Shown piece after piece: positions 31,213 through 54,200 of a stretch of 64,000 nt of DNA. Every line of letters starts with the position of its first letter. Position 1 is the stretch's first letter. Location of the stretch: assembly GCA_010093815.1 (NCBI GenBank), contig ML996572.1, one strand, 5' to 3'. The stretch is from Pseudovirgaria hyperparasitica. Its lineage: Eukaryota. The notes beneath the pieces are model-generated. The model saw nothing but the letters and a program-made list of their open reading frames with translations. It had not been told where the DNA came from and searched no databases. The translations under genes were made by a program, and so were the position numbers.

Positions 31213-31899
31213 TGTTGAAGTTCTAAAGAAGTTATATTGTCTAAGTCCTTAAGTCTAAGAGAGACGACTTAAGTATTCTACGCTAATAGCTAGTGTAATA
31301 AATAAATGAGAGAGTAGTTCCTTCTATACTCCCCTATACTTAAACCATTCATTATAGACTAATATTAGTTCTTAACTTCTCTAATATTAGTATAGGGAGA
31401 GACTTTATATATATATCCGCTAAGTTCTTAGTAGAAGAGACATAACGAACCTCGAAAACCCTATATATATATTTCTTACGGACGAAATAAAAGTGTATAG
31501 TAATATACTTAGAACGAGTATTAATCTATATATTCTTAATTAAAGATATAGCTATCTAATTATTAGTAAGTAGCTAGGGTAGATAAGGAAGAGTAGATCT
31601 AGTAAGTTCTATAATTAAATTAATAGACTATATAAGATAACTTATAGTATTTAAGTAAGCTATATATTCGCTCTTATATATAGACTTCGTAACTATATTT
31701 TATCTTTTAGTGCTCTAGATAAGTATATTTCTATACTACTAAAAAATATATCCTAAGAAAGACCTTAACAAGCTAGGGTTAGATCCCTAGAATATATCTA
31801 AAAATATATATATAGTAGGAGGTTCTAGAGAGCGTTAGAGTACTAGGGATAAGCCGCTTATATACTTTATATATTGGAGAAGCTAGTATATATAATTAA
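31213..31899 (-). mobile_element. 3' end of a RIP-mutated Ty1/Copia LTR retrotransposon: RNase H (~31830-31355), PPT 31334-31329, 116-bp 3' LTR 31328-31213
   Basis: Minus-strand translation de-RIPs to WSTKRQ..VAKST.ESEYMA, DNQAAI, RSKHIAVHFHFVRE and ENLADM.TKSLP; GGGGAG PPT precedes an LTR ending ...TTCAACA. Confidence 0.88.
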
Positions 31900-32077
31900 T
31901 GTTAGGACTTAGCCTTAGATAGAACCTAACCTATATGTACCTTAGCTAATAGGGTTAGGAGGTAATGTAAAGGGTAGTAAATAGTTATATACTAGATAGA
32001 TTAGCGTCCCTTTATATATATACTCTTAGATTTCTACTAAAAGAGTTTAATAGTAATTTATTCTATAATAGAATATA

Positions 32078-32218: not shown

Positions 32219-32785
32219 ATATACCCTATTATTCTATCTAACTATACTACTATCTAATAACCCTATTCTTATATTCGAATTACTCTCTATATAGTACTAT
32301 AGTTAAGATAGTCTAACTAGAACCAAGAAGGTCGATATAATCTACTATAGAGATAAGTAATACTATATTAAATAATAGGGATCCTCTATAATTAGTATTA
32401 ATTCTAGCTATTTCTAACTAAGAAGTAGAAATATTAGACTAAATCACGGAGCTTTTAGATGAAGAAATAGTAGATATACTAAGTAACTTCTAATAATATA
32501 AAGCCGGATAATAAGTCGTAGCGGAGCCATATAAGATATTATAATAAACTATTACTAAACTTTAGAAATATATCGCGAATTAGGCTCGAGAGATTTAAAC
32601 TCTTAAAGAATAGATAGAACGCGCGAAACTTCTTATAAAGAGATAAGAACTTAAGGAGTCTCTTAAAGAACTACGCCGAATAATAGTAGGTAGATAACTT
32701 TCTATACTAATTTAGGCGGAATTAGTTTACCTACTATTAGAGTTATAATAATCTACTATATTTCTAGCCGCTTTATTACTAATTT

Positions 32786-35700
32786 TATAAAGAGTAAAGA
32801 CGTGGGATAGTAGTCTAATAGTTCATAGAGAGACATAGAAATGTATTTATAGAGTAATCTTACTCTTATACAAGGTTGATTCCTAAGAAGTAGGAATTAG
32901 TTTATACGGTCTACTTATATAGTAACCTCGCTTAACTTAGCTAACTTAACCTAGCTCTGGCCACTACGTGGCTATATAGATTAGAATAGTCTATATAGAT
33001 CTATTATAGTTCCCGTCCTAATAATATCCTTCTTCTTTTTATACTTCGCCCCGAAGCACTTAAGTATATATAATCCTAAGTCTCTATAATCTATCGTGTA
33101 CCTATATATCCGTAACTAAGTTCCTATAATGTTATAACTATCCTTAATATAGGTAAACTCGAGATTCTAGTTTACTTTTACTAGTTTATACACGCGCTTA
33201 TCCCTTACTTTATAGCTACTACCTAGAATATATAATCGCCACTTTAGTCGAGTATATATTTAGCTTCGCTCGCCTTTAATTTTATTCTCTAGTATATCTA
33301 CCTCGCTCTTAAGGTAAGTCGTTAATTTATATACTATCTTCCCTAGTTTAGGTTTAGAAGGGTCTATAGTAGTCTATTCTTATTAGAACCGGTCTAATAT
33401 AATCTATTCGCGTTATTATAGTTACTGATTTAGCTTCGTTAATCGCCGTTAAGGGTAGACGAATATTCCTTTCTTAGATCTCTAGCTAACGTATATATAT
33501 AGATATCTAATACTAGTTCTATCTCTAAGCCTGCCTCCTCCTCTTATAAGACTCGCTCTAAAGGTATCGCCTCCTCCCCGGCTACGCCGGCTAAGAAGCC
33601 TATCTATTACGGTAGTATAAAGGCGCGCTCTAAGTTAGAGAAGAGAGTAGTTAGGGCTACTACTACTACTACCTCTACTACTAATATAGCTACTAGTCGC
33701 TCTAATCTAGGTAATCCTAGTACTAAACTTATAGATAAAGTGGTCGTAGATTCCCCTCTCGCTCTAAAGCGTATACTATCTACTCTACCTTCTCTAGAGG
33801 ATAAAGAAGATCTTATTATAGATAATAATCGCGAGCCCTCGCGTTTACCTACGCCGCCGCCTTACCGCTCTTTCTTCTAGTCTAATATAGACTAATTTAG
33901 TCGCTCTAGGTTCTTTTAGGACCTTAATATTTACTCTAAACCCTAGCCTACTAATAATAAGGTCTAGGTCGCCGAGGATACTAAACATGGTCATGGTTTA
34001 CGCTATAGGAAAACGGCGAACTATAGTTCGATATACTATAAGTATATTAAGGGCTATACGGCCGGCTCTAAATATCTCTTTCGCTCTAACTCTAGTATTA
34101 GCTACTACTCTACTAACCGCGATAGGCCTATACGCCTTATCTTTACTCTACCTACCCGCTACTACCGCTATACCGTGACTAGTAAGACTTATCTATAGAT
34201 AAGTATAATAGGCTATCTTAATCTAGTATAATCTAAAGTAGTCCGCGCTAATATATTCTTAGGTTCCTATATATATATAAGATATATATAACGACCTTCG
34301 CGTCCGTGAGACCCTNNNNNNNNNNNNNNNNNNNNNNNNNNNNNNNNNNNNNNNNNNNNNNNNNNNNNNNNNNNNNNNNNNNNNNNNNNNNNNNNNNNNN
34401 NNNNNNNNNNNNNNNNNNNNNNNNNNNNNNNNNNNNNNNNNNNNNNNNNNNNNNNNNNNNNNNNNNNNNNNNNNNNNNNNNNNNNNNNAGAGGGTATATA
34501 TTCCCTTCTAGATTATTCTAGATTATATTAGCTAACTTTAGACCTAGTCGCTACGCTCCGGCGCTTAAGGCTCTTCCCTCTAGGCTCTAACGGATTAGGT
34601 TATTACTCTAGAGACTAAGGTCGTCGTCCTCCGCCACTATATTATATAGTTAGAGAGGACTACGCTAGAGGTTAGGATAGATAATAAGATAGAGGAGTAG
34701 CTCTATGGTTCTAGCTCTATGGGTTTGGCTCTATATATTAGCTCTATGGTCTAGCTCTATATATTAGCTCTATATCTAGCTCTATATATTCTAGATCTAC
34801 TATAGGTGGTGCGCGCCGGCTCTATTTACCTGGCTTTTATCCGTTTTAGTCCTTTTTAGACCGTTTAGATATCTATCGGCTAGTTTCTAGTAATTTAATT
34901 CTTAACTTAACGATATTATATGTGCGCTCGCTTAGCTTATAACTATTGGTTTCTATATTCTAATTTTCCTTAAGTTACCTAAGTATAGACACCATATATA
35001 AATTAGTTTATCTCTATAAATTCTATTAGAGTACCTAAACTAGTAGCCTAGTAGTTATTAGTTCGGGTACTCTAATCTTTTATATTTTATATTAAGAGTT
35101 TAATTCTATGGTAGGGTACCTTTTTTTAGGTTCTTAGTCCTATGTTTTTCTCGTGTATAATGGTCCATGTTAGTCTATTCTAGACTCTTCTATATTATTC
35201 TATTATAGTATGTTACGTCGCGTTTCTAAAATGGTTATTTACGCTTTCTTCGTGTCTAGTAACCATATAACACTTAAATTATAGGGCTACTATATAGAGT
35301 TTTCCTAGTGCGCGTCTAGATTTCCTAGTTTAGTACTTCGTTCTCTACGGTATCCTTCTTCTTTTTATAATAACCGCGACGTTACTATACTTATATTAAT
35401 AATACGCTATTCTATATCTTTTACTTATACGCAGCTATTATAGAACTTAAGATATATACTACTAGTTCCTAGGTGTTCTCGTCCTTAGTGTAGTCCGTCT
35501 AATAGATTCTATATTTCTAAACACCGTCTTTATTAATCCTATGTTCGATAATATAGTCTACTTCGAATATATCTAGTCTATCTTAGGGTATAATAGAGTG
35601 TAACTACACGTTTATGCGGCCATATACGTTAGGTTAAAATCTTTTAAGTAGTAAGACGTGGAACACGTTATAGATTCTTATATTACTTTCTAAGTCGAGC

Positions 35701-38700
35701 TTATAGACTCTTATACTAATACGACATTTAATTCGGAAGGGACCAGCCATTTTATAATTAAGCTTCTTATTTACTCGCGATATTTATATGTTACGGACGT
35801 TAAGAAGGACCTCGTCGCCCTCCTTATATGTCTAATCCTTGGCTAACCTATTATAGTACTTCGTATACGAGTTATTTACTTATTAGATTATAGCGTGATA
35901 GTTACGTATGGTTTCGAAGATTTTAATTACTAATTTCTAAGCGTGGACGTTCACGTCTATTATTCGATTAAATTAGACCGTCTAAGGCTTAAAACCTATC
36001 CTTAGACTACGTCCGAGGTTCGCCTAGAAAGGTATAANNNNNNNNNNNNNNNNNNNNNNNNNNNNNNNNNNNNNNNNNNNNNNNNNNNNNNNNNNNNNNN
36101 NNNNNNNNNNNNNNNNNNNNNNNNNNNNNNNNNNNNNNNNNNNNNNNNNNNNNNNNNNNNNNNNNNNNNNNNNNNNNNNNNNNNNNNNNNNNNNNNNNNN
36201 NNNNNNNNNNNNNNNNNNNNNNNNNNNNNNNNNNNNNNNNNNNNNNNNNNNNNNNNNNNNNNNNNNNNNNNNNNNNNNNNNNNNNNNNNNNNNNNNNNNN
36301 NNNNNNNNNNNNNNNNNNNNNNNNNNNNNNNNNNNNNNNNNNNNNNNNNNNNNNNNNNNNNNNNNNNNNNNNNNNNNNNNNNNNNNNNNNNNNNNNNNNN
36401 NNNNNNNNNNNNNNNNNNNNNNNNNNNNNNNNNNNNNNNNNNNNNNNNNNNNNNNNNNNNNNNNNNNNNNNNNNNNNNNNNNNNNNNNNNNNNNNNNNNN
36501 NNNNNNNNNNNNNNNNNNNNNNNNNNNNNNNNNNNNNNNNNNNNNNNNNNNNNNNNNNNNNNNNNNNNNNNNNNNNNNNNNNNNNNNNNNNNNNNNNNNN
36601 NNNNNNNNNNNNNNNNNNNNNNNNNNNNNNNNNNNNNNNNNNNNNNNNNNNNNNNNNNNNNNNNNNNNNNNNNNNNNNNNNNNNNNNNNNNNNNNNNGTA
36701 TATAGTACTTTCTATTATAGTAAAGTAAGCCGTCCACGAAGGTCTACTTATAGTCTACTTTAGTCCGTAATAACCTATCTTACTATATTTTATATAACTT
36801 TAAAACTATCGGGTCTATCTTCTATAGATCTATAATTAACTAGGCGAGGTTAATTAGATATTCACGCTAGGTATTATCGCCCTTCCCGATAGCGCTAATA
36901 AACGGCCTACTAGGGACTTTAGTACCGCGTCTTTGGTTACCGGCTTTAGTCTTAGAGATTCGATTACTAGCATCGATATTAGTATCTCGCTAATTACCTA
37001 ATAACTTAAAATCTAACCTCGTCCTTAAGAGTTAGGCCTATAGCTACTCTAGGACCCTATAGCTACTATAATTCTAGGCGCCTTCTTTATAGTTAGGTCT
37101 TCTTAATATTCTATTAGCTAGGTTTATACTTCTAGGTTAATAGTAGATTATAAAATAAAAATTCATAAGCTACTTAGCCTATTAAACCTATCAACAATTT
37201 AAAACCATCATACTTATAAACCCCTTTAAGTTATAGTAATTAGTTAGTAACTCGACGTTATATATGGCACCTTTAAGATAATATTACTACTATTTAAATA
37301 ACTCTACTATTACTAGTAGCTCTTAGTTATAGATAGTATATCTAGTCTTAACATCGACTATTTTGCGTAAGAAGAACGTAACTAGATACTATTAGACCTT
37401 TTTAGACTTAGTTAGTCTAGGCTAGAAGAGAATACCTAAGATTATAAATTCTAACACGTTAGTTTTAACGCGGATAGATTTAGTCGGGTTAAAGTATACT
37501 AGTAATAGAGTAGTTATAAATACCTCTTTAATTTTCTTGAAGGAGGCCCTTTCGCCTTCCGATAATTCTATAGACTATGATTTAATATTATACTATTTCT
37601 ATCTACCGCGGACCGTAATAGATAAATCTATAGTAGTAGTATACGCGTTAAGCGGTGCTACTAGCCGGGAGAAATACTTAACGAATTTTCGGTAGTAATT
37701 AGCGAATCTAATAAAGATACGTATATCTCGAACTAATTTTAGTTTAGACTAGTCTACGATAGTAGCGACTCTATCCCTTTCTATAGTTATATCTTAATTA
37801 GTAATAATAAAGCTAAGGAAGTTAATATGGTCCTAGTGGAACTCGCATTTAGATAGCTTAATATATAGCTTATATTTTTCTAGCCTATCTAGGACTACGC
37901 GTACGTGCTAGATGTATTCTTCTTTATTATTAGAGAAGATAAGGATGTTATTAAGGTATATAATGCACGTCGTGTCGAGTAGGCCTACTAGCGTGTTATT
38001 AATATACGCTTAGAAGGTTCCTAGCGCGTTAGTTAGTCTAAAAGGGACCACTATATACTTGAAGTATCTATAACGGGTTCTAAACGCCGTTTTCTACTTA
38101 TCGCCCTTCTTAATACGTAGGCGGTAGTAGACGTCACGTAGATCGAGCTTAGTAAAGATCTTCGCGCGCCCTAGTCTATTAATAGACTTAGAGATAAGAG
38201 GTAGTAGGTAACGATTCTTTTATATAATATTATTTAGGCTATAGTAGTCGATATATAGACGGAGACTCCTATCCTTCTTCTTTATAAAGAGGATTAGAGC
38301 TCCGGCTAGAGATATACTAGGTCTAATCTATCCTCGCGTAAGGTTCTTTTCGATATATTCTTAGAGGACCTATAGCTCGGGTTCTAATAGAGGGTATATA
38401 GGTCCGTATAGGGGTTATTAACCGTCTTTAAGATTAATAGTAAGGTCGGTAGGTTAGTATTAAGGTAATTCGGACGAGTCGATCGCTAACGCGATATATT
38501 AGTATATTTTATACTAATATAGTAGGTTTTCGTCTACTTTAATACTAAGCTCTCTATTTTAAGTAAGTAAGAGGACATAGATAGCGGAGATTACCTTTTC
38601 GTAGTCCTTCTAGAATTATTCGTCGTTAACTAGCTATACTAGGTTCTATTATAGTAGGTACATGCGCCAGCCAGCTATTTTCTAGATAAAGTCTAGTTTC

Positions 38701-40738
38701 GGGTTATATTTTTTAAGCTATAGTATACTAAGGATTATATCGAAGGGACTATCTACCATAATAAAGGTTAAGTAGCAGGGTTTCTACTTCCCCCCGCTAT
38801 CCTAGATGCTATATTTAATAGTATAGGTACCCTACGATTTAATAGAACTATCGATACCATAGAAGGTAGCACCTATTAGTACTTAAATATCGACGTTAAG
38901 TTCTTATGCTCGTTAAGTCGATATAACGTTAGTAGCTAAACTACTATCGAGTATTATAGTCTAATATTATCTATAAGAGACCTCGATAGGCCTAGCCTAT
39001 AGTTTAATATACTAGTTAGCTAGTTATCCCTCTATTTTAGTTACGCCTACGAGTCGTGAGGGTTCCTTATAGATAGTTAGTTTTTTATATCGTATACCGG
39101 GTAGTTAGACGCGATGTATCCTAGCTACTAGTACTTATAGTATATAACTAACTTAGTATCTATATTAGTATTTAGTAGTTTCCCTAAGCGGTACTCGGGT
39201 GCTATATAGCCTATTCTACCATAGGTATAGTAGGTGACTTTAGGTCGTTTATATAAGTCGTTTCTCGCGTCTCGATATATTAACTAGTAGAAAGATCCAC
39301 GGTATAGGCCTCGTCTTCTCGAGTTCGTGGAGTAGTAGCGCCTATAAGATATTCCGCGCGATCTATTACTAAACCGGTCCTCTTTAGACGATTTCGTATT
39401 AGATTAGATTAATAGGGATAGTCGTACGCCTATACGATGTTAGTTATTTATTATACGCTAATATCGTTCTACGAGATTCGCGAGTACCTAAAGGTTAGTA
39501 GAGATAGACGTTATAAGGTTAATATATTCCTTTACGCTCGGGTTAAGGGACCTTTTAAAGTTATCGCATTATTAAACTATATAATCTTCCTTAGCTTCTC
39601 TCTAAAGAGGTCGGAGGTATTTAAGGAGTTATAACAGGGATTATCTCTCTCGCTATTAAGTCTTAAAGATATAGCTCTAAGTCTATTCGTGTCGCTTAGC
39701 TCTATCGCCGAAGCATTAAAGAAGGAATTTAGTAAACGTATCCTAGTTATACGTATCCTTAGGGTGTTTAATTCGATGTACCATCTAACGTTTAGATAGT
39801 ATTAGGTCTAGGTAGTTCTATACGAACCTAATCTTATTACTATCGTTTATGAATAGGTGGAAGAATCGGCTATACTAGTAAGCCTATTTATAAAAGCTCC
39901 TCCTGGTTTTACCGTCGAAGTAAGGTGGTTTCTTAGGCTAAGGTAACTAGGATAGTAATAGACTTAGTTAGACTGTTTCGGCTTAAGTTAGTCTATATTA
40001 GTGTAGGTTAGTTATTACTAGTACTAAAGCGCGTAGTATAGCTTTAAGTCTAGCGGTTCGTCCTTACGCTTTATTAAGTTCACGAAGTTACTACTCGAGC
40101 TAAGTCTAACGCTACCTCTCTATGTATAGCTTAGTATATATATCATTATAAGGGGTGGTTAATATTAGTCGGTTCTAACGAATTAATTCATTAACGTTAA
40201 TAGGGTCTAGTCTTATAGTAAGGATAGGTCTAGTATAGTATAAACTAGACCGCGATAGAGTATAATGGACTCCTTCCTTATTATCTAGGTAATCTTCCAC
40301 GGTTATATAGAATGCCGTACTAGTTATTAGTACGATAGTCTATAGAGTATACTTATTAGTAGAGGTGGTCGTAGAGAGACTATTCTCTTCGTTTAGATTT
40401 AGAGAGAGTCTCTCGTATAAGGTAGTACTACGGGTATTATAGCGCGTAGTAGGAGCTATCTCTATAAGCTACTATCGTACTATATAGAGAGAAATTAAAA
40501 TATAAAGAGTAAAGACGTAGGATAGTAGTCTAATAGTTCATAGAGAGATATAGGAATGTATTTATAGAGTAATCTTACTCTTATACGAGGTTGATTCCTA
40601 ACGAGTAGGAATCGGTTTATACGGTCTACTTATATAGTAACCTCGCTTAACTTAGCTGACTTAACCTAGCTCTGGCCACTACGTGGCTATATGGATTAGA
40701 ATGGTCCATACAGGTCTATTATAGTTCCCGTCCTGATA
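32786..40738 (-). mobile_element. Chromoviral Gypsy element family B, copy 1 (heavily RIPed, two assembly gaps); LTRs 32786-33023 and 40501-40738
   Basis: Two 238-bp LTRs, TSD AATTT (32781-32785 / 40739-40743), minus-strand PPT AAAAAGAAGAAGGATAT; colinear with copy 3. Confidence 0.95.
33503..34511 (+). pseudogene. Antisense accessory gene in family-B copy 1 (N gap inside the gene)
   Basis: Colinear with copies 2 and 3. Confidence 0.65.
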
Positions 40739-41692
40739 AATTTACTCTACTTCTTCTCTAGATATACTAAAATCTAAAGATCTAACTATATTTATAGAGA
40801 AGAACTAAAAGGAGTAGAAAGACTAGAAGAGAGACTACGAAAAGTACTTCCTTAATAACCCTCTACTCTTTTCTACTAAAGTATAATATATTTTATTTAG
40901 AGAATAATACCTAGACTTATAATTCTATAATTAATAGAATAGATAGAAGGAAGTATAGCTACTATCTACGATAACTATAAAGAGTAAAGACGTAGGATAG
41001 TAGTCTAATAGTTTATAGAGAGACATAGGAATGTATTTTTAGAGTAGTCTTACTCTTATACGAGGTTGATTCCTAACGAGTAGGAATCGGTTTATATAGT
41101 CTACTTATATAGTGACCTTACTTAACTTAGCTAACTTAACCTAGCTCTAGCCACTACGTGGCTATATGGATTAGAATAGTCTATATAGATCTATTATGGT
41201 TCCCGTCCTAATAATATCCTTCTTCTTTTTATGCTTCGCCCCGAAGCACTTAAGTATATATAATTCTAAGTCTCTATAATCTATTATATATCTATATATC
41301 CGTAACTAAGTTCCTATAACGTTATAACTATTCTTAATATAGATAAACTCGAGATTCTAGTTTACTTTTACTAGTTCATGCACGCGCTTATCCCTTGCTT
41401 TATAGCTACTACCTAGGACACGTGATCGCCACTTTAGTCGAGTATATATTTGGCTTCGCTCGCCTTTAATTTTATTCTCTAGTATATCTATCTCGCTCTT
41501 AAGGTAAGTCGTTAATTCATATACTATCTTCCCTAGTTTAGGTTTAGAAGGGTCTATAGTAGTCTATTCTTATTAGAACCGGTCCTATATAACCTATTCG
41601 CGTTATTACGGTTACTAATTTAGCTTTGTTAATCGCCGTTAAGGGTAGACGAATATTCCTTTCTTAGATCTCTAGCTAATATATATATATAG

Positions 41693-42766
41693 ATATCTAA
41701 TACTAGTCCTATCTCTAAGCCTACCTCCTCCTCTCGTAAGACTCGCTCTAAAGGTATCGTCTGCTCTCTAGCCACGCCGGCTAAGAAGCCTATCTATCAC
41801 GGTAGTATAAAGGCGCGCTCTAAGTTAGAGAAGAGAGTAGCTAGGGCTACTACTATTACTACCTCTACTACTAATATAGCTACTAGTCGCTCTAATCTAG
41901 GTAATCCTAGTACTAAACTTATAGATGAAGTAGTCGTAGGTTCTCCTCTCGCTCTAAAGCGTATACTATCTACTCTACCTTCTCTAGAGGATAAAGAAGA
42001 TCTCGTTATAGATAATAATCGTAAGCCCTCGCGCTTACCTACGCCGCCGTCTTACCGCTCTTTCTTCTAGTCTAATATAGACTAATTTAGTCGCTCTAGA
42101 TCCTTTTAGGACCTTAATATTTACTCTAAACCCTAGCCTACTAATAATAAGGCCTAGGTCGCCGAGGATACTAAACGTAGTTATGGTTTATACTATAGGA
42201 AAACGGTGAACTATAGTTTAATATACTATAAGTATATTAAGGGCTATACGGCCGGCTCTAAATATCTCTTTTACTCTAACTCTAGTATTAGCTACTACTC
42301 TACTAACCACGACGGGCCTATACGCCCTATCTTTACTCTACCTACCCGCTACCGCCGCTATACTATAACTAGTAAGACTTATCTATAGGTGAGTATAATA
42401 GGCTATCTTAATCTAGTGTAATCTAAAGTAGTCCGCGCTAATATATTCTTAGATTCCTATATATATATAAGATATATATAACGATCTTCGCGTCCGTGAG
42501 ACCCTCAGGGGTTCTTATAGCCGCCTACCTACTATATAGAGGGAGTTTAGGGAGCGCTATAAGCTCTTCCTAGAGGTTATTAAAGTATAAGTTATAAGTA
42601 CGTTAATTNNNNNNNNNNNNNNNNNNNNNNNNNNNNNNNNNNNNNNNNNNNNNNNNNNNNNNNNNNNNNNNNNNNNNNNNNNNNNNNNNNNNNNNNNNNN
42701 NNNNNNNNNNNNNNNNNNNNNNNNNNNNNNNNNNNNNNNNNNNAGAGGGTATATATTCCCTTCTAG
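41693..42766 (+). pseudogene. Antisense accessory gene in family-B copy 2 (undeleted first coding exon 41693-42388; N gap inside the gene)
   Basis: 232-codon frame with RIP-type stops, ending at a GTGAGT donor (42389). Confidence 0.7.
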
Positions 42767-44575
42767 ATTATTCTAGATTATATTAGCTAACTTTAGACCT
42801 AGTCGCTACGCTCCGGCGCTTAAGGCTCTTCCCTCTAGACTCTAATAGATCGGGTTATTACTCTAGAGGCTAAGGTTATTATCCTCCGCTACTATGTCGT
42901 GCGGTTAGAGAGGACTATACTAGAGGTTAGGACGGATAATAAGATAGAGGAGTAGCTCTATAGTTCTAGCTCTATGGGTTTGGCTCTGTGTATTGGCTCT
43001 ATGCCTAGCTCTTATCCGTTTTGGTCCTTTTTAGACCGTTTAGATACCCGTCGGCTAGTTTCTAGTAATTTAATTCTTAACTTAACGATATTATGTATGC
43101 GCTCGCTTAGCTTATGACTATCGGTTTCTATATTCTAATTTTCCTTGAGTCACCTAAGTGTGGGCACCGTATATAAATTAGTTTATCTCTATAAATTCTA
43201 TTAGAGCACCCGAACTAGTAGCCTAGTAGTTATTAGTTCGGGTACTCTAACCTTTTATATTTCGTGTTAAGAGTTTAATTCTATAGTAGGGTACCTTTTT
43301 TTTAGGTTCTTAGTCCTATGTTTTTCTCGTGTATAATAGTCTATGTTAGTCTATTCTAGACTCTTCTATATTATTCTATTATGGTATATCGCGTCGCGTT
43401 TCTAAAATGGTTATTTACGCTTTCTTCGCGTCTAGTAACTATGCGACGCTTGAATTATAGGGCTGCTATATAGAGTTTTCCTAGTGCGCGTCTAGATTTC
43501 CTAGTTTAGTACTTCGTTCTCTACGGTATCCTTCTTCTTTTTATAACGACCACGACGTTACTATACTTATATTAATAATACGCTATTCTATATCTTTTAC
43601 TTATACGTAGCTATTATAGAACTTAAGATATATACCGCTGGTTTCTAGGTATCCTTATCCTTAGTATAGTCCTTCTAACGGATTCTATATTTCTAAACAC
43701 CGTCTTTATTAATTCTATATTTAATAATATAGTCTACTTCGAACATGTCTAGTCTATCTTAGGGTATAATAGAGTGTAACTATACGTTCGTACGGCTCTA
43801 TACGTTAGGTTAAAATCTTTCGAGTAGTAAGACGTGGAATATATTATAGATTCTTATATGTAATGAGTGAAGACGTGGGATAGTAGTCTAACAGTTCATA
43901 GAGAGACATAGGAATGTATTTGTAGAGTAGTCTCACTCTCATACGAGGTTGATTCCTAACGAGCAGGAATTGGTTTGTACGGTCCACTTATATAGTGACC
44001 TCGCTTAACCTAGCTGACTTATCCTAGCTCTGGCCGCTACGTGGCTGCATGGATTAGAATAGTCTATATAGGTCCGTTAGGGTTCCCGTCCTAATAATAT
44101 CCTTCTTCTTTTTATGCTTCGCCCCGAAGTACTTAAGTATATATAATCCTAAGTCTCCATGATCCACCGTATATCTATATATCTATAACTAAGTTCCTAT
44201 AACGTTATAACCATCCTTAATATAGGTGAACTCGAGATTCTAGTTCACTTTTACTAGTTCATGCACGCGCTCATCCCTTGCTTCGTGGCTACTGCCTAGG
44301 ACACATAATTACTACTTTGGTCGAGCATATATTTAGCTTCGCTCGCCTTTAATTTTATTCTCTAGTACATCCACCTCGCTCTCAAGGTAAGTCATTAATT
44401 CATATACTATCTTCCCTAGTTTAGGTTCAGAAGGGTCTATTATGGTCTATTCTTATTAGAACCGGTCCTATATAACCTATTCGCGTTATTACGGTTACTA
44501 ATTCAGCTTCGTTAACTACCGTTAAGGGTAGACGAATATTCCTTCCTTAGATCTCTAGCTAACGTGTATATATAG

Positions 44576-45391
44576 ATATCTAATACTAGTCCTATCTCTA
44601 AGCCTACCTCCTCCTCTCGTAAGACTCGCTCTAAAGGTATTACCTCCTCCCCGGCCACGCCGGCTAAGAAGCCTACCTATCGCGGTGGTACGAAGGCGCG
44701 CTCTAAGTCGGAGAAGAGGGTAGCCAGGGCTACTACTACTACTGCCTCTACCACTAATATAGCCACTAGTCGCTCTAATCTAGGTGATTCTAGTACTAAA
44801 CTTATGGATGAAGTGGTCGTAGGTTCTCCTCTCGCTCTAAAGCGCACGCCGCCTACTCTGCCTCCTCTAGAGAATGAAGAAGATCTCGTCATGGATGATG
44901 ATCGCGAGCCCTCGCGCTTATCCACGCCGCCGCTGTGCCGTGACTAGCAAGACTTGTCTATAGGTGAGTATAATGGGCCGTCTTAATCTAGTGTGATCCA
45001 AAGTAGTCCACGCTAATACATTCTCAGGTTCCTATGCGTATGTAAGATACATATAACGACCTTCGCGTCCGCGAGACCCTCGGGGGTCCTTATGGCCACC
45101 TACCTACTATATAGAGGGAGTTTAGGGAGCGCTATAAGCTCTTCCTAGAGGTTATTAAAGTATAAGTTGCGAACACGTTAATTATTTTTAACACCTATTG
45201 ATATTTCTAGCCGCCGCGAGATCCCTAGCGCCTAGGCTGCCTATTCTAGGGAGTCTGTCCTGGCCATAGAGGCCGCAGAGAGGATTCGCTCTATCCCCCC
45301 TCGTCCGTCTCGCGCTACTAACGGATCTCGTAAGAGGTCTGCTATTTCTCCCTCTAAGTCGCCTCGCAAGAGGGTATATATTCCCTTCTAG
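44576..45391 (+). pseudogene. Antisense intron-containing accessory gene inside family-B copy 3 (carries a 308-bp internal deletion)
   Basis: 5'UTR intron 44387-44575; introns 44964-45027 and 45162-45210 are phase-compatible; basic S/P-rich protein. Confidence 0.7.
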
Positions 45392-46199
45392 ATTATTCTA
45401 GATCGTGTTAGCTAACTTTAGACCCAGTCGCTGCGCTCCGGCGCTTAAGGCTCTTCCCTCTAGGCTCTAACGGATCGGGTTATTACTCTAGAGGCTGAGG
45501 TCGTCACCCTCCGCCGCCATATCGTGCGGTTAGAGAGGACTATACTAGAGGTTATAACGGATGATGAGATGGAGGAGTAGCTCTATGGTTCTGGCTCTAT
45601 GTGTTGGCTCTATATATTCTAGATCTACTATGGGTGGTGCGCGCCGGCTCTGTTTACCTGGCTTTTATCCGTTTTAGTCCTTTCTAGACCGTTTAGATAC
45701 CCGTCGGCCGGTTTCTAGTAATTTAATTCTTAACTTAACGATATTATGTATGCGCTCGCTTCGCTTATGACTATCGGTTTCTACATTCTAATTTTCCTTA
45801 AGTTATCTAAGTGTGGGCACCGTATATAAATTAGTTTATCTCTATGAATTCCATTAGAGCACCCGAACTAGTGGCCTAGTAGTTATTAGTTCGGGTACTC
45901 TAACCTTTTATATTTCGTGTCAAGAGTTCAATTCTATGGTAGGGTACCTTTTTTAGGTTCTTAGTTCTATATTTTTCTCGTGTACAATGGTCCATGTTAG
46001 TCCATTCTAGACTCTTCTATTATGGTGTGTCGCGTCGCGTTCCTAAAATGGTTGTTTACGCTTTCTTCGCGTCTGGTAACCGTGCGACACTTAAATTATA
46101 GGGCTGCCTTATAGAGTTTTCCTAGTGCGCGTCTGGATTTCCTAATTAAGCACTTCGTTCTCTGCGGCATCCTTCTTCTTTTTATAACGACCGCGACGT

Positions 46200-49100
46200 C
46201 GCTATGTTTACATTGATAATACGCTATTCTATATCTTTTACTTATACGCAGCCATTATAGAACTTAAGATATACACCGCTAGTTCCTAGGTATCCTCGTC
46301 CTTAGTGCAGTCCTTCCAACGGATTCTATATTTCTAAACACCGTCTTCATCGATCCTATGTTCGATAATATGGTCTACTTCAAACACGTCTAGTCCATCT
46401 TAGAGCATAATAGAGTATAACTACACGTTCGTACGGTCATACACGTTAGGTCGAAATCTTTCGAGTAGTGAGACGTGGAACACGTTATAAATTCTTATAT
46501 TGCTTCCTAAGTCGAGCTCGTAGGCTCTTATACCGATACGACGTTTGATTCGGAAGGGACCAGCCATTTTATAATCGAGCTTCTTGTTTGCTCGCGACGT
46601 TCGTATGTTACGGACGTTAAGAAGGACCTCGTCGCCCTCCTCGTACGTCTAATCCTTGGCTAACCTATTATAGTACTTCGTATACGAGTCGTTTACTTAT
46701 TGGATTATAGCGTGATAGTTGCGTGCGGTTTCGAAGATTTTAATCGCCAATTCCTAAGCGTGGACGTTCACGTCTATTATTCGATTAAATTAGACCGTAT
46801 AAGGCTTAAAACCTATCCTTAGACTACGTCCAAGGTTCGCCTAGAAAGGTATAATACTAGTCGTGCTATAACGACTATTATTATATATGAACTCTACTAT
46901 ACTTAGTAGGGAGGCCTAGTCGTCCTACTCGAAATTATAGAATGCGCGTAGGTAGGCTTCGAGCGTCTGGTTCTGTCGCTCTGTCTAGCCATCCGTCTAA
47001 GGATAAAATGCTATAGATATATTCCTATTCATGCTTACCATTTCGCAGAATAACGTCTAGAATTTAGACGTGAAGGTACTTTCTCGGTCCGTAACGATCC
47101 TTTTTAGTACACCATAGACCTTAATAATCTCGTTCTGGAACACCTACGCCAGTTCTTTGGATGTAATCGTCTTCCACACCGGGATATACCTAGATATCTT
47201 TATAAGTCTATCCACGATAATAAGAATAGAATTATAACTTATTCTAAGTATCTCGCTTAGAGATAAGTTAACTATAAAGTCTATAATAATATCTTCCTAT
47301 ATAAAGAGGGGGACTAAAAGAGGCTGTAAATTCCCATATAGCTTATGCCTAGGGGCCTTCGTTCTTTAACAAATCGGATAAGTAGCTATCCATTCTTCGA
47401 CGTACTTGGGCATATCTTCCTAAAAATAGTACTAACGAATTAAGCTCAGGGTACGTATATACCCAAAGTATCCTACTAGGTTAGCGTCATGGTATCGGCT
47501 AACTATGTTAAATCGCGCGTTGCCCGTCGGCACATAGCACTTTCTATCATAGTAAAGTAAGCCGTCCACGAAGGTCCACTTATAGTCCACTTTAGTCCGT
47601 AATGACCTATCTTACTACATTTTACGCAACTTTAAAACTATCGGGTCTGTCTTCTATAGATCCACGATTAACTAGGCAAGGTTAATTAGACATTCACGCC
47701 GGGCATTATCGCCCTTCCCGACAGCGCTAATAAACGGCCTACTAGGGACTTCGGTACCGCGTCTTTAGTTACCGGCTTTAGTCTTAGAGATTCGATTACC
47801 GGCATTAACGTTAGCATCTCGCTAATCGCCTAATAACTTAAAATCTAACCTCGTCCTCGAGAGTTGGGCCTATAGCTACTCTAGGACCCTATGGCTACTA
47901 TGATTCTAGGCGCCTTCTTTATAGTTAGGTCTTCTTAACATCCTATTAGCTAGGTTTATACTTCTAGGTTAATGGTAGATTACAAAGTAAAAGTTCGTAA
48001 GCTACTTAGCCTATCGAACCTATCGACGGTTTAAAACCGTCGTGCTCATGAACCCCTTTAAGTTATGGTAATTAGTTAGTAACTCGACGTCATGCATAGT
48101 ACCTTTAAGATAATGTCGCCACTATTTAAACGACTCTACTATTACTAGTAGCTCTTGGTCATGGATAGTATATCTAGTCTTAACATCAACTATTTTGCGC
48201 GAGAAGAACGTAACTAGATACCATTGAACCTTTTTGGACTTAGTTAGTCTAGGCTAGGAGAGAATGCCTAAGATTATAAATCCTAACGCGTCGGTTTCGA
48301 CGCGGATAGGTTTAGTTAGGTCGAAGTGCACCAGCAATAGGGTAGTAGTGAATGCCTCTTTGATTTTCTCGAAGGAGGCCCTTTCGTCTTCTAATAATTC
48401 TATAGGCTATAATTTAATATTACGCTATTTCTATCCACCGCGGACCGTAATAGACGAATCTATGGTGGTAGTACGCGCGTTAAGCGGTGCTACTAGCCGG
48501 GAGAAGTACTTAACGAATTTTCGGTAGTAATTAGCGAATCCGATAAAGACACGTATGTCTCAAACCGATTTTGGTTTAGGCCAGTCCACGATAGTAGCGA
48601 CCCTATCCCTTTCCATGGTTATACCTTGATTAGTAATGACGAAGCCAAGGAAGTTAACGTGGTCCTAGTGGAACTCGCATTTAGATAGCTTAATGTATAG
48701 CTTGTGTTTTTCTAGCCTACCTAGGACTGCGCGTACATGCTAGATGTGTTCTTCTTCGTTATTAGAGAAGATAAGGATGTCGTCGAGGTATACGATGCAC
48801 GTCGTGTTAAGTAGGCCTGCTAGCGCGTTATTAATATACGCTTAGAAGGTCCCTAGCGCGTTAGTTAGTCCAAAAGGGACCACTATGTACTCAAAGTGTC
48901 CATAACGGGTCCTAAACGCCGTTTTCCACTCATCGCCCTTCTTAATACATAGGCGGTAGTAGGCATCGCGTAGATCGAGCTTAGTAAAGATCTTCGCGCG
49001 CCCTAGTCTATCGATAGACTCGGAGATAAGAGGTAGTAGGTAACGATTCTTTCGCGTGATGTTATTTAGGCCACGGTAGTCGACATACAGACGGAGACTC

Positions 49101-49912
49101 CTATCCTTCTTCTTTATAAAGAGGATTAGAGCTCCGGCTAGGGACATACTAGGCCTAATCTATCCTCGCGTAAGGTTCTTTTCGATGTATTCTCGGAGGA
49201 CCTATAGCTCAGGTTCTAATAGAGGGTAGATGGGTCCGTATAGGGGTTATTAACCGTCCTCGAGGTTAATAGTAAGATCGGTAGGTTGGTATTAAGGTAA
49301 TTCGGACGAGTCGATCGCTGACGCGATATATTAGTATATTTTATACTAATGTAGTAGGTTTTCGTCCACTTTGATGCTAAGTTCTCTATTTTAAGTGAGT
49401 AAGAGGACGTAGATAGCAGAGATTGCCTTTTCGCAGTCCTTCTGGAATTATTCGTCGTCGACTAGCTATACTAGGTTCCATTATGGTGGGTGCATGCGCT
49501 AGCCAGCTGTTTTCTAGATGAAGTCTAGTTTCGGGTTATATTTTTCGAGCCACGGTATACCGAGAATCATGTCGAAGGGGCTATCTACCACGATAAAGGT
49601 TAAGTAGCAGGGTTTCCACTTCCCCCCGCTGTCCTAGATGCTATATTTAATAGTATAGGTACCCTACAATTTGATGGGACCATCAATGCCATGGAAGGTG
49701 GCACCTATTAGTGCTTAAATGTCGACGTTAAGTTCTCGTGCTCGTTAAGTTAATATAATGTTAGTGGCTGAACCGCTATCGAGCATTACGGTCCAATGTT
49801 ATCCACGGGGGACCTTGATAGGCCTAGCCTACAGTTCGATATACTGGTTAGCTGGTTATCCCTCTATTTTAGTTACGCCTATAAGTCGCGAGGGTTTCTC
49901 GTAGGTAGTTAG
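46200..49912 (-). pseudogene. pol: pol of family-B copy 3: protease, RT, RNase H, integrase, chromodomain (3' end approximate)
   Basis: VMLDSGSA (~49780), [33 protein letters not shown] (~48785), VETDA.GF, integrase core, and chromodomain FEVDHIIEH..KYRIRWKD..EDTWEP (~46385-46270). Confidence 0.92.
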
Positions 49913-51291
49913 TTTTTTATATTATGTACCGGGTAGTTAGGCGCGATGTGTCCTAGCTGCTAGCACTTATAGTATATAACTAACTTAGTATCTATGTTAG
50001 TATTCGGTGGTTTCCTAGAGCGGTACTCGGGTGCTATATGGCCTATCCTACCATAAGTATAGTAGGTGACTTTAGGTCGTTTATGCGAGTCGTTTCTCGT
50101 ATCTTAATATGTCGACCGGTGGGAAGATCCGCGGTACGGGCCTCGTCCTCTCGAGTTCGTGGAGTGGTAGTGCCCACGAGGTATTCCGCGCGATCTATTA
50201 CTAAACCGGTCCTCTTTAGACGATTTCGCATCGGATTAGATTAGTAGGGATAGTCGTGCGCCTGTACGGCGTTGGTTATTCATTATACGCCAGTGTCGTT
50301 CTGCGAGATTCGCGAGTGCCTAAAGGTCGGTAGAGATGGACGTTGTAAGGTCGATACGTTCTTTTACACTCGGATTAAGGGACCTTTTAAAGTCGTCGCA
50401 TTATCGAACCATGCGATCTTCCTTAGCTTCTCTCTAGAGAGGTCGGAGGTATTTAAGGAGTTGTAACGGGGATTGTCTTTCTCGCTATTAAGTCTTAAAG
50501 ATATGGCTCTAAGCCTATTCGCGTCGCTCGGCTCTATCGCCAAAGCATTAAAGAAGGAATTCGGTGAACGTGTCCTAGTTATACGCATCCTTAGGGTGTT
50601 CGATCCGATATACCATCCAATATTCAGATAGCGTTAGGTCTAGGTAGTTCTATGCGAACCTAATCTTATTACTATCGTTCGTGAATAGGTGGAAGAATCG
50701 GCTACACTAGTAAGCCCATTCGTGAAAGCTCTTCCTGGTTTTACCATCAAAGTAAGGTAGTTTCTTAGGCCGAGGCAACTAGAATAGTAATAGACTTGGT
50801 TAGACTGTTTCGGCTTGAGTTGGTCCATATTAGTATAGGTTGGTTGCTACTAGCACTAAAGCGCGTAGTGCGGCTTCGAGTCTAGTAGTTCGTTCTTACG
50901 TTTCGTTAAGTTCGCGAAGTTACTATTTAAGCTAAACCTAACGCTACCTCTCCGCGTGTAGCCTAGTATACACGTCGTCGTGAGGCGTGGTTAATGTTAG
51001 TCGGTTCTAACGAATTAGTTCGTTAACGTTAATAGGGTCTAGTCTTATAGTAAGGATGGGTCTAGTATAGTGTGAACTAGACCGCGATAGAGTATGATAG
51101 ACTCCTTCCTTATTATCTAGGTAGTCTTCCACGGTTACACGGAATGCCGTACTAGTTATTAGTACGATAGCTTATAGGGTATACTTATCGGTAGAGGTGG
51201 TCGTAGGGAGACTATTCTCCTCATTTAGATTTGGGGAGAGTCTCTCGTAGGAGGTCGTGCCACGGGTATTATGGCGTGTAGTAGGAGCCAT
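49909..51291 (-). pseudogene. gag: gag of family-B copy 3 (461 codons, RIP stops) with two CCHC zinc knuckles
   Basis: ATG at 51291 in frame with TAA at 49911-49909; de-RIP VTCYTCGRIGHIAPEC and CYKCQQLGHIAPNC. Confidence 0.85.
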
Positions 51292-54200
51292 CTCTATAAG
51301 CTACCGTCGTACTATATAGAGAGGAATTAAAATGTAATGAGTGAAGACGTGGGATAGTAGTCTAACAGTTCATAGAGAGACATAGGAATGTATTTATAGA
51401 GTAGTCTCACTCTTATACGAGGTTAATTCCTAACGAGTAGGAATCGGTTTATGCGGTCCACTTATATAGTAACCTCGCTTAACCTAGCTGACTCATCCTA
51501 GCTCTAGCCGCTACGTGGCTGCATGGATTAGAATGGTCCATACAGGTCCGTTAGGGTTCCCGTCCTAACATTATATTACTTCCTAAGTCGAGCTCGTAGG
51601 CTCTTATACTAATATAACGTTTGATTCGGAAGGGACTAGCCATTTTATAATTAAGCTTCTTATTTACTCGTGATGTTCGTATATTACGGACATTAAGAAG
51701 GACCTTATTGCCCTCCTCGTACGTCTAATCCTTGGCTAACCTATTATAGTACTTCGTATATAAGTCGTTTACTTATTAGATTATAGCGCGATAGTTATAT
51801 ACGGTTTTAAAGATTTTAATCGCTAATTTCTAAGCGTGGACGTTTACGTCTATTATTTAATTAAATTAGACCGTCTAAGGCTTAAAACCTATCCTTAGAC
51901 TACGTCCGAGGTTCGCCTAGAAAGGTATAATATCTATTATGCTATAACGGCTATTATTATATATGAACTCTACTATACTTAGTAGGGAGGCCTAGTCATT
52001 CTACTCGAAATTATAGAATACGTGTAGGTAGGCCTCGAGTATCTAGTTCTATCGCTCTATCTAGCTATCCGTCTAAGGATAAAATACTATAGACATATTT
52101 CTATTTATACTTACTATTTCGTAGAATAACGTCTAGAATTTAGATGTGAAGGTACTTCCTCAGTCTATAATAATCCTTTTTAGTATACTATGGACCTTAA
52201 TAATCTCGTTCTAGAATACCTACGCTAGTTCTTTAGATGTAATCGTCTTCTATACTAGGATATACCTAGATATCTTTATAAGTCTATCTATAATAATAAG
52301 AATAGAATTATAACTTATTCTAAGCATCTCGCTTAGAGGTAAGTTAACTATAAAGTCTATAGTAATATCTTCCTATATAAAGAGGGGGACTAAAAGAGGC
52401 TATAAATTCCTATATAGCTTGTGCCTAGGGGCCTTCGTTCTTTGATAAATCGGATAAGTAGCTATCTATTCTTCGATGTACTTAGGTATATCTTCCTAAA
52501 AATAGTACTAACGAATTAAGCTTAGGGTACGTATATATCTAAAGTATCCTACTAGATTAGCGTTATAGTATCGGCTAACTACGTTAAATCGCGCCTTACC
52601 CGTTAGTATATAGTACTTTCTATTATAGTAAAGTAAGCCGTCCACGAAGGTCTACTTATAGTCTACTTTAGTCCGTAATAACCTATCTTACTATATTTTA
52701 CGTAACTTTAAAACTATTAGGTCTATCTTCTATAGATCCACGATTAACTAGGCGAGGTTAATTAGATATTCACGCCGGGTATTATCGCCCTTCCCGATAG
52801 CGCTAATAAACGGCCTACTAGGGACTTCGGTACCGCGTCTTTAGTTACCGGCTTCGGTCTTAGAGATTTAATTACCGGCATCGACGTTAGTATCTTACTA
52901 ATCGCCTAATAACTTAAAATCTAACCTCGTCCTTAAGAGTTGGGCCTATAGCTACTCTAGGACCCTATAGCCACTATAATTCTAGGCGCCTTCTTTATAG
53001 TTAGGTCTTCTTAATATTCTATTAGCTAGGTTTATATTTCTAGGTTAATAGTAGATTATAAAGTGAAAGTTTATAAGCTACTTAGTCTATTAAACCTATT
53101 AATGGTTTAAAACCGTCGTGCTTATAAACCCCTTTAAGTTATAGTAATTAGTTAGTAACTCGACGTTATATATAGTACCTTTAAGATAATATCGCTACTA
53201 TTTAAATGACTCTACTATTACTAGTAGCTCTTAGTTATAGATAGTATATCTAGTCTTAATATTAACTATTTTACGCGAGAAGAACGCAACTAAATACTAT
53301 TAGACCTTTTTAGACTTAGTTAGTCTAGGCTAGAAGAGAATGCCTAAGATTATAAATCCTAACGCGTCGGTTTTAATATAGATAGATTTAGTTAGGTCGA
53401 AGTGCACTAGTAATAGGATAGTTATAAATACCTCTTTGATTTTCTCGAAGGAGGCTCTTTCGCCTTCTAATAATTCTATAGGCTATAATTTAATATTACG
53501 CTATTTCTATCTACCGCGGACCGTAATAGACGAATCTATAGTAGTAGTACATGCGTTAAGCGGTGCTACTAGCTAGGAGAAGTGCTTAACGAATTTTTAG
53601 TAGTAATTAGTAAATCCGATAAAGACACGTATATCTTAAACCGATTTTAGTTTAGGCTAGTCTACGATAGTAGCGACTCTATCCCTTTCTATGGTTATAC
53701 CTTAATTAGTAATAATAAAGCTAAGGAAGTTAATATGGTCCTAGTGGAACTCGCATTTAGATAGCTTAATATATAGCTTATGTTTTTCTAGCCTATCTAG
53801 GACTACGCGTACGTACTAGATGTATTCTTCTTTATTATCCGAGAAGATAAGGATGTCGTTAAGGTATATAATATACGTCGTGTTAAGTAGGCCTACTAGC
53901 GCGTTATTAATATACGCTTAGAAGGTCCCTAGCGCGTTAGTTAGTCTAAAAGGGACTACTATATACTTAAAGTATCTATAACGGGTCCTGAACGCCGTTT
54001 TCCACTTATCGCCCTTCTTAATATATAGGCGGTAGTAGGTGTCGCGTAGATTGAGCTTAGTAAAGATCTTCACGCGCCCTAGTCTATTAATAGACTTAGA
54101 GATAAGAGGTAGTAGGTAATAATTCTTTTATATAATGTTATTTAGGCTACGGTAGTCGATATATAGACGGAGACTCCTATCCTTCTTCTTTATAAAGAGG

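Follow-up and report, generated by a model that had tools for sequence, protein, structure and literature searches.

The present analysis concerns a gene-like unit of 1.3 kb that is carried in antisense orientation by a chromoviral Gypsy retrotransposon of the filamentous ascomycete Pseudovirgaria hyperparasitica (assembly GCA_010093815.1, contig ML996572.1). The window, by which we mean the whole stretch of 64,000 nucleotides analyzed, contains three complete copies of the element, all degraded by repeat-induced point mutation (RIP). In each copy the unit lies between the end of pol and the 3′ long terminal repeat (LTR), on the strand opposite to gag-pol. The unit is probably the RIP-inactivated remnant of an accessory gene of this chromovirus family. 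Its place and strand, its coding statistics, its introns, its presence in the family, an intact antisense gene in the related element L001, and the precedent of the brtn gene of Boty together argue for a former accessory gene.

The unit is more than a product of chance, and it belongs to the retrotransposon family, being present in all three copies and covered along its whole length by DNA contigs of the organism. The three copies in the window are dead, with no start codon and with premature stops in each readable copy. An earlier note on this DNA had proposed a spliced antisense gene for a basic nuclear protein with a cluster of cysteines. As described below, the anatomy given there stands almost entirely, and the cysteine cluster stands in part.

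Chromoviral Element and Position of the Unit

Self-BLAST and reading of the junctions place the three copies of the element on the minus strand within 32.8-56.7 kb, every copy having TG..CA ends and a 5-bp target duplication. Copy A extends over 32786-40739, with the duplication AATTT at 32781-32785 and 40740-40744. Copy B/D is split into ~40976-43858 and 51576-56650 (B and D in what follows), with the duplication ATAAC at 40971-40975 and 56651-56655. Copy C, the least RIP-mutated of the three, extends over 43859-51570, is flanked by TTATA at 43854-43858 and 51571-51575, and is nested inside the integrase/chromodomain region of copy B/D. The 238-bp 3′ LTR of copy C (43859-44096, minus strand) has been read at its ends together with its partner 5′ LTR (51333-51570). 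Directly inside it, at 44100-44113, lies the polypurine tract (PPT), which appears on the plus strand as a pyrimidine run.

A single minus frame of copy C matches the Pfam models RVT_1 (E = 1.2e-31), RT_RNaseH_2 (4.3e-19), Integrase_H2C2 (4.5e-10), SH3_Tf2-1 (1.3e-16), and Chromo (6.4e-06), the RNase H being matched by two models. This set of pol domains, with a chromodomain in the same frame, makes the element a chromovirus, and the LTR pair, the TG..CA ends, the 5-bp duplication, and the order of reverse transcriptase, RNase H, and integrase followed by a C-terminal chromodomain all conform to that class. The assignment made in the earlier note, of a chromoviral Gypsy element with gag-pol on the minus strand, is thus confirmed.

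The chromodomain (46268-46384, minus strand, Pfam) marks the end of pol near 46.2 kb, and ~2.1 kb remains up to the 3′ LTR. The unit (44114-45391) sits between the chromodomain and the PPT, on the strand opposite to gag-pol. The three copies align across the whole spacer between pol and the LTR, and both the self-comparison and the three-copy alignment recover the unit at 33503-34511, 41693-42766, and 44576-45391, where it had been reported before. The DNA runs of the organism contain thousands of short contigs of the family: 4109 contig pieces in one run (X1) and 1554 in another (X2) fall on 41230-42608, with depth in all 30 bins. Two runs of another sample under the same species label (X3 and X4) gave no contig of the family, an outcome that bears neither on its absence nor on its expression.

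Exon-Intron Structure

The model of the unit starts with a putative promoter and an untranslated first exon (exon 0, 44114-44386, plus strand, as are all features that follow), in which no frame has a coding signal and which ends at the donor of intron 1. Intron 1 (189 nt, 44387-44575; 33314-33502 in copy A and 41504-41692 in copy B) runs from GTAAGT through GCTAAC to TAG and stands just before the presumed start, where copy C reads ATA at 44576. Exon 1 is of full length in copy A (33503-34198) and copy B (41693-42388), each with 232 codons and six in-frame stops, and its last codon abuts the donor of intron 2. In copy C (44576-44963) the same exon has suffered a deletion of 308 bp after 44929, which is private to this copy, shifts the frame, and takes out the middle of the exon. 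This deletion form is seen in one contig of each run.

Intron 2 (64 nt, 44964-45027; 42389-42452 in copy B) has the form GTGAGT..CTAAT..CAG, is in phase 0, and begins two codons past the last Cys codon; in copy A (34199-34262) its donor is mutated to ATAAGT. Exon 2 (45028-45161, 134 nt, i.e., 44 codons and 2 nt) contains two in-frame stops. Intron 3 (49 nt, 45162-45210) has the donor ATAAGT and the acceptor TAG, and exon 3 (45211-45391) encodes a basic tail of Ser, Arg, Lys, and Pro with one internal stop before the terminal TAG at 45389-45391.

All three introns are found with the donors, acceptors, and lengths that the earlier note had given, as are the GCTAAC of intron 1 and the CTAAT of intron 2. 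The frames proposed there also join, because each of the two introns inside the coding part (64 and 49 nt) displaces the reading by one base, which takes it from plus frame 0 to 1 to 2. The protein of ~335 residues that had been reconstructed from them is matched by one frame of ~336 codons through the three exons; this frame is obtained at the price of reversing nine in-frame stops. The interpretation of the initial ATA as an ATG altered by RIP is not borne out by the copies in the window.

We have also considered a number of variants of this model. An intron 2 of 151 nt, with its acceptor at the stop 45112-45114, would be in frame and would remove both stops of exon 2. It was not adopted, because its branch site is poor and because the residues that follow the 64-nt intron resemble those of L001. 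Moving the donor of intron 3 two bases upstream was rejected, as it leaves five stops in exon 3. An upstream ATG at ~44262 in exon 0 was likewise rejected, since three stops follow it in frame, of which one is a TGA where the reading is less mutated, and the region has no coding signal.

Coding Signal

In both copies A and B, 6 of the 232 codons of the exon-1 frame are stops, compared with 10-48 in the other five frames, and none falls within the first 118 codons, as counted in copies B and C. None of the minus frames remains open in both halves of the exon; they contain 10-12, 20-21, and 48 stops in 231-232 codons. At 2.6%, stops are less dense in the exon-1 frame than in the true pol frame, which has 42 stops in 976 codons (4.3%) in copy C and 63 in 906 (7.0%) in copy D. 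The antisense frames of pol are, however, almost as open as pol itself, and stop counts are therefore a weak test in this sequence.

A second measure is the log-likelihood per codon under the codon usage of the window's own host genes (4819 codons). By this measure the chosen frame is the first of six over exon 1 (-4.27, vs -4.40 for the next frame), over its N-terminal part (-4.09 vs -4.34), and over exon 2. The pol frame, taken as a control, scores -4.38 vs -4.48. The flanks score between -4.5 and -5.1, and neither they nor intron 1 nor the spacer have a preferred frame. A periodicity points in the same direction: third codon positions are pyrimidines with a frequency of 0.61-0.74 and A with a frequency of 0.07-0.19 in each of the three exons, a pattern that is missing from exon 0, intron 1, and the spacer.

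A scan for the combination of donor, branch site, and acceptor finds two full motifs within the 1.3-kb unit, both on the plus strand, and recovers them in every copy in which they are unmutated. Elsewhere in 30-64 kb the same scan gives four cases on both strands, over ~60 kb of strand, i.e., ~0.07 per kb, and the Poisson probability of two motifs in 1.3 kb is ~0.004. The background motifs lie in RIP-mutated repeats at 52339-52525, 61680-61791, and 63106-63199 on the plus strand and at 63590-63413 on the minus strand, one of them in the pol of copy D.

RIP and the Cysteine Motif

Between the repeat copies 97-98% of the differences are transitions, which is the signature of RIP. The polymorphic C/T and G/A sites of the three aligned elements (32786-56650) are distributed over CpG (436) and CpA/TpG (429), such that RIP here strikes CpG as often as CpA. 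Accordingly, a TA in one of the three full elements faces TG (262 cases), CG (197), or CA (178) in another, and the ancestor of a Tyr codon may have been a codon for Cys, Arg, or His. Since many TA dinucleotides derive from CG, the way in which Tyr and stop codons are restored (de-RIP) has to change in this genome.

The contigs were compared at 40 of 95 variable places. Among these, the first stop of exon 1 (42068-42070) reads CGG in 81% of the depth in run X1 and 72% in run X2. The Tyr codons at 42053-42055 and 42122-42124 read CGC in 38-53% of the depth, and copy A has CGC at two further codons that are Tyr in copy B. The rule followed in the earlier note, by which Tyr codons were restored to Cys, is thus unsafe, as RIP also converts CG into TA and at four Tyr codons of exon 1 other copies have Arg.

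The general character of the protein is less dependent on such restoration. The basic N-terminus, the acidic patch, and the basic tail described previously can be read directly in copy C, where the first 118 codons are rich in Lys, Arg, Ser, Thr, and Pro and contain no stop, and are accompanied by an acidic run and a basic tail of Ser, Pro, Lys, and Arg. In copy B, exon 1 has a basic N-terminal part, an acidic patch, a Tyr-rich middle, and an end resembling C-x2-C-x6-C.

Of the cysteine cluster proposed earlier, the two TGT codons said to be readable in copy C are indeed present (44934-44936 and 44955-44957), whereas the other supposed Cys positions are mostly Tyr codons in both readable copies. 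The candidates upstream are Tyr codons with spacings of x9 and x28. The Zn2Cys6 spacing that had been recognized likewise holds for one half, a C-x2-C-x6-C in which two of three Cys are read, and fails for the other, no second C-x2-C triad being found within 5-12 residues. The full Zn2Cys6 definition (C-x2-C-x6-C-x5-12-C-x2-C-x6-8-C) does not describe the unit, and exon 2 contains no C-x2-C. The translations of copies A, B, and C give no match to Zn_clus at E up to 10, a weak negative with a query damaged by RIP. The unit therefore shares with the Gal4-type Zn2Cys6 domains (PF00172; Hap1, Put3, Leu3, Gal4) the C-x2-C-x6-C spacing and the basic context, and differs from them in its two read Cys, the missing second triad, and the lack of a Pfam match. 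Beyond the two Cys read directly in copy C, the C-x2-C-x6-C motif is plausible, and a Cys cluster outside this motif is conjectural.

Related Elements

A profile of pol finds 80 metagenome loci with 29-54% identity to the mutated pol. In most of those with a recognizable LTR pair the distance from pol to the LTR is 200-700 bp, and none of the 80 encodes anything similar to the unit in sequence. The closest of them, the intact chromovirus L001 (54% identity), lies on a circularly permuted contig, from which its LTR limits were inferred. This element contains an antisense gene at 3382 to 2590 on the minus strand, ~260 bp past the pol stop and before the likely PPT. The gene encodes 216 residues in four exons (62 + 65 + 26 + 63 codons) with no internal stop, and its three introns of 45, 47, and 53 nt are all in phase 0 and have canonical donor, branch, and acceptor. 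A TATAAATA box is found ~160 nt upstream of its ATG.

The first exon of the L001 gene ends with C-x2-C-x11-C-x7-C-x2-C-x6-C, two codons, and the donor GTGAGT, and exon 1 in the window ends with [Tyr]-x2-C-x6-C, two codons, and GTGAGT. At the level of the sequence, TGT CTA TAG/GTGAGT (44955-44969) in the window corresponds to TGC CAC CGA/GTGAGT in L001. The residues that follow the intron are V-P-M-R-M in the window and I-P-R-R-F in L001, both of the form hydrophobic-P-x-R-hydrophobic. The two genes thus have in common the place between pol and PPT, the antisense orientation, the splicing, the C-x2-C-x6-C motif, and a phase-0 intron two codons after it. They differ in length (216 residues vs ~336), in the long basic N-terminal region, which L001 does not have, in the C-terminus, which is acidic and Ser-rich in L001 and basic in the unit, and in the 5′ untranslated intron, which is not seen in L001.

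Alignment does not add to these positional likenesses. A tblastn search with L001 gives no convincing match in the chosen frame and one at E 0.004 in another plus frame. In a RIP-aware Smith-Waterman comparison of the unit with L001, shuffled sequences do as well as the real one in 67-164 of 200 cases; this comparison takes the best ancestral residue for each codon and is too permissive to have power. The exons of L001 have no match in the other 79 loci, in the window, or in Pfam.

A second relative, L003 (44% pol identity), has an intronless antisense open reading frame (ORF) of 173 residues at 5635-6159 on the minus strand, which overlaps the last 100 bp of pol. With 38 homologues at E of 1e-3 or less, the ORF belongs to a family of 39 sequences seen in metagenomes and in one NCBI record, a hypothetical protein of Sporormia fimetaria (Pleosporales); several of them sit on contigs of 6.4-7.4 kb. 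The family members have ~175 residues and a conserved E-W. Six Cys with the spacing C-x2-C-x6-C-x8-C-x2-C-x6/7-C, each shared by 90% of the sequences or more, precede a long helix and a PFTWS motif. In Pfam the family gives sub-threshold rows only: DUF5651 for 25 of the 39 members and Zn_clus for 13 of the 39 at E up to 1. The best Zn_clus match in the family has E 0.0032, and that of L003 itself has 10.6 bits, compared with a curated cut-off of 21. For the AlphaFold model of the L003 protein (mean pLDDT 72.6), Foldseek gives E values of 0.47 or worse and thus nothing within the threshold of 0.001; the rows 1-24 listed are all Zn2Cys6 DNA-binding domains (Hap1, Leu3, Pho7, Put3, Gal4, Lac9, Ppr1, AlcR).

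The unit resembles the L003 family in that a related chromovirus likewise encodes the L003 protein antisense at its 3′ end, on the LTR side, and in the Cys motif. The L003 ORF is, however, intronless, and its second Cys triad and its helix have no counterpart in the window. When the first Cys block of the family (P-x-x-C-R-x-C-x3-G-x2-C) is scored in a RIP-aware manner, the end of exon 1 reaches 22.4 in copy B and 22.1 in copy A, and the top of 57,320 control positions is 22.1. The two longer L003 Cys blocks are unexceptional, 52-245 control positions scoring as high as the end of exon 1. A zinc-cluster reading of the unit leans on the relatives and not on the window.

Other relatives carry other sequences after pol. 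L058 and L059 have sense ORFs there. L054 (4040-4939, plus strand) and L026 (7761-8297, minus strand) share a different extra ORF; it is similar between these two loci and, in the loci as retrieved, lies on opposite strands relative to pol.

Comparison with Known Systems

The closest described parallel is brtn of Boty, an antisense gene of a fungal chromovirus located between pol and the 3′ LTR (Zhao et al. 2011, Virology 417:248, as cited in PMC7264820, PMC8365987). The gene is described for Boty-like Ty3/Gypsy elements of Botrytis cinerea and Sclerotinia (PMC7264820, PMC8365987, PMC4227169, PMC5987419), and a BRTN-like transcript is reported for Monilinia among the same four papers. Both are cases of an ascomycete Gypsy element with a chromodomain and an extra antisense gene between pol and the 3′ LTR; the likeness is one of place and strand, drawn from descriptions of brtn and not from its sequence. 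The element in the window differs from Boty in that its LTRs measure 238 bp and all its copies are RIP-dead. No match in the searches with the unit or with the L003 protein bears the name BRTN. An antisense gene of this kind is thus already in print and is less new than the earlier note had assumed. In the open literature (subscription journals and supplements being outside the search), brtn is the only accessory gene of a fungal LTR element that we found, and no report of a zinc-cluster gene in such an element was encountered.

Antisense ORFs between pol and the 3′ LTR are also described for the plant Ty3/Gypsy elements RIRE2, Grande, and Retand (TRP28), for whose products DNA binding and a role as regulators are proposed (PMC7264820, PMC11963269). 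The unit agrees with them in position, in orientation, and in its presence in most copies of the family. Of the features by which this class of genes (aORF-3R, with brtn among its members) is recognized, the place between pol and the PPT/3′ LTR, the opposite strand, and the occurrence in most copies are found in the unit, the middle of exon 1 alone being ambiguous as to strand; the promoter of its own, a further feature of the class, is putative. The Retand elements are, however, plant non-chromoviruses (PMC11963269), TRP28 is unrelated, and the unit has no Pfam similarity.

A further comparison, made in the earlier note, is with VANC. This accessory protein of the plant VANDAL DNA transposons is encoded on the sense strand and acts on the chromatin of its own element in an anti-silencing manner. 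By description both would be accessory genes borne by transposons; VANC differs in that it comes from a plant DNA transposon, is encoded on the sense strand, and has an anti-silencing function.

Proposed Function

If the unit was a gene, it would have had its own promoter next to the 3′ LTR, and its transcription would have been convergent to that of gag-pol. It is an established principle that introns antisense to the genomic RNA survive reverse transcription. The introns of the unit, being antisense, would not have been spliced from the genomic RNA and would have been copied with the element, which would explain how they could be kept. The product would be a basic, largely disordered protein with an acidic patch, half a zinc cluster of the form C-x2-C-x6-C, and a basic tail resembling a nuclear localization signal. 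Such a protein would most likely be nuclear and bind nucleic acids, for example, in regulating transcription from the LTR or in helping integration. Binding to DNA or chromatin, the nuclear location, and the role as transactivator or anti-silencing factor that the earlier note suggested are inferred from these features.

A broader proposal, which we regard as possible but doubtful, is that there is a clade of ascomycete chromoviruses with antisense genes for zinc-cluster DNA-binding proteins. The unit, the L001 gene, and the intronless L003 family may be fast-diverging members of one such lineage, in which transposon-encoded relatives of the fungal Gal4-type factors would serve the element to drive or target its own expression and introns would have been kept by lying antisense to the genomic RNA. 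In that case the retrotransposons of fungi would possess regulators of the same type as those on which the host relies for most of its pathway-specific control of transcription, and these would be candidates for self-activation, for the targeting of integration, or for evading silencing. Few accessory genes of LTR retrotransposons are known, and little is understood about them; the intact relatives, L001 and the 39 sequences of the L003 family, make the question testable despite the dead copies in the window.

Alternative Explanations

A number of observations weigh against the interpretation of the unit as a former accessory gene, and they are collected here. As to the model itself, a start ATG is absent from all three copies, and the nine in-frame stops that have to be reversed are distributed over exon 1 (six), exon 2 (two), and exon 3 (one). 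The donor of intron 3 is non-canonical in the present sequence. Exon 3 can be read in copy C alone, since runs of N mask it in the other two, and codon usage does not distinguish its frame from the others. De-RIP makes any TAA, TAG, or TGA reversible, because RIP acts on both CpA and CpG, and a frame that is open afterwards constitutes no test. The resolved Tyr/Cys cases of exon 1 give Arg four times and Cys twice.

Exon 1 is moreover compositionally simple, and four of the six frames are fairly open in its N-terminal part. In its middle, plus frame 1 has 2-4 stops vs six in the chosen frame, and under host codon usage the in-phase minus frame scores -4.41 vs -4.45 for the chosen one. Plus frame 1 was nevertheless rejected for this region, because it is closed by a TGA (copies A and C) seven codons short of the donor and the periodicity agrees with frame 0.

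Nor do similarity searches recover a homologue. The queries are damaged by RIP and of low complexity, and the blanks that follow are to be read as weak negatives. Word-based searches give 247 candidates for exon 1 of copy B, none at E up to 0.01, and 1366 for the read-through of copy C, none at E up to 1. A three-copy profile has no match at E up to 0.001 among 1.84 billion representatives, and eight translations yield no more than two chance-level rows in Pfam. The metagenome scan with the unit profile produced 169 pattern matches, none of them confirmed, and tblastn with the raw and the three-copy de-RIP translations against the 80 related loci (0.76 Mb) gives a best E of 0.47. When the unit is aligned plainly with L001, its score is reached by 201 of 500 shuffles, a number that drops to 21 of 500 only if Tyr is assumed to have been Cys. 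With L001 and L003 taken together, 67-198 of 200 shuffles attain the observed score in the RIP-aware Smith-Waterman comparison. The L003-family profile, run with all filters off on the six-frame, spliced, and three-copy de-RIP versions of the unit, scores -1.6 or below.

Four other explanations of the unit have been considered, each of which fits fewer observations than the remnant of an accessory gene does. In the first, an ancestor of the family captured a fragment of a host gene in antisense orientation, which has since been carried neutrally with no role for the element. The codon usage of the unit, which is host-like and better than that of pol, and its host-type introns would be natural for such a passenger, and cellular capture is one origin discussed for the plant region between pol and the 3′ LTR and its antisense ORFs (PMC11963269). 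It would also account for the lack of significant similarity among the unit, L001, and L003, and for the other relatives that carry unrelated sense or antisense ORFs or none. We consider it unlikely. A neutral fragment has to be reconciled with the occurrence of the unit in three of three copies and, at full length, in the organism's DNA contigs, and no host homologue emerged from the word-based and profile searches. L001 keeps an uninterrupted antisense gene of four exons at the same place and with the same intron site after the Cys motif, which argues for retention across the divergence of the elements, and the conserved Cys and Trp of the L003-type protein across 39 sequences indicate constraint.

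The second explanation denies that there is a gene: a pyrimidine-rich spacer of low complexity would have its open frames, intron motifs, and frame joins by chance. Several of the points collected above lend themselves to this explanation, namely the four fairly open frames of the N-terminal part, the missing ATG, the reversibility of every stop under RIP whatever the frame, the empty searches, and the ambiguity of the exon-1 middle among three frames, to which the four intron-like motifs elsewhere in the repeats can be added. Chance is less easily invoked for a single frame being open through both halves of exon 1, for an N-terminal codon score of -4.09 that beats the -4.38 of pol next to flanks with no preferred frame, or for a periodicity confined to the three proposed exons and combined with intron motifs at P ~0.004. 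One of the stops is a sense codon in most other copies, and an intact analogue exists in L001. We thus judge the absence of any gene to be quite unlikely.

A spliced antisense long noncoding RNA (lncRNA) over the 3′ part of the element, in which the ORF is incidental and the transcript regulates the element, for example by feeding RNA silencing, would explain canonical introns that are not accompanied by a preserved start codon. Its transcription, convergent with that of gag-pol, would be expected to yield double-stranded RNA, and antisense lncRNAs derived from transposable elements are described for a fungal pathogen (PMC10648671). A noncoding RNA would not be expected to have such codon usage and third-position periodicity throughout the three exons, the antisense ORFs of L001 and L003 are uninterrupted, and the L003 family is conserved at the protein level, all of which renders this explanation very unlikely.

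Finally, coding by the minus strand, in the form of a third sense ORF past the chromodomain (env-like or an extension of pol), is hardly credible: the 1-2 stops in 117 codons over the N-terminal part, the ORF of 82 residues at 44677-44925, the slightly better score of the in-phase minus frame in the exon-1 middle, and the sense ORFs of L058 and L059 would speak for it, but none of the minus frames stays open from one end of exon 1 to the other, the plus frame is ahead by 0.13 nats per codon over the whole exon, it is the plus strand that has the intron signals, Pfam gives no match for two of the three minus frames across the N-terminal part, and open antisense frames are expected opposite a series of codons ending in pyrimidines.

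Genomic Surroundings

The window comes from a filamentous ascomycete. Its first 30 kb have a GC content of ~0.5 and contain ordinary genes, among them those for a Mot1-like SNF2 ATPase, a kinase, a GH71 protein, PrpF, and dynactin p62. Beyond ~30 kb the GC content drops to 0.31-0.45. For annotation, units such as the one described here, situated in RIP-mutated AT-rich blocks, are to be treated as pseudogenes of element genes and not as host genes.

The sequence contains three runs of N, at 34316-34488 (copy A), 42609-42743 (copy B), and 36038-36697 (pol of copy A). The first two mask a homologous stretch, which comprises exon 3 of the plus-strand unit and the intron that precedes it. The Gypsy copies are flanked by other RIP-degraded repeats at 30-32.8 kb and 56.7-64 kb, and a short inverted match joins 31892-32075 with 63296-63476.

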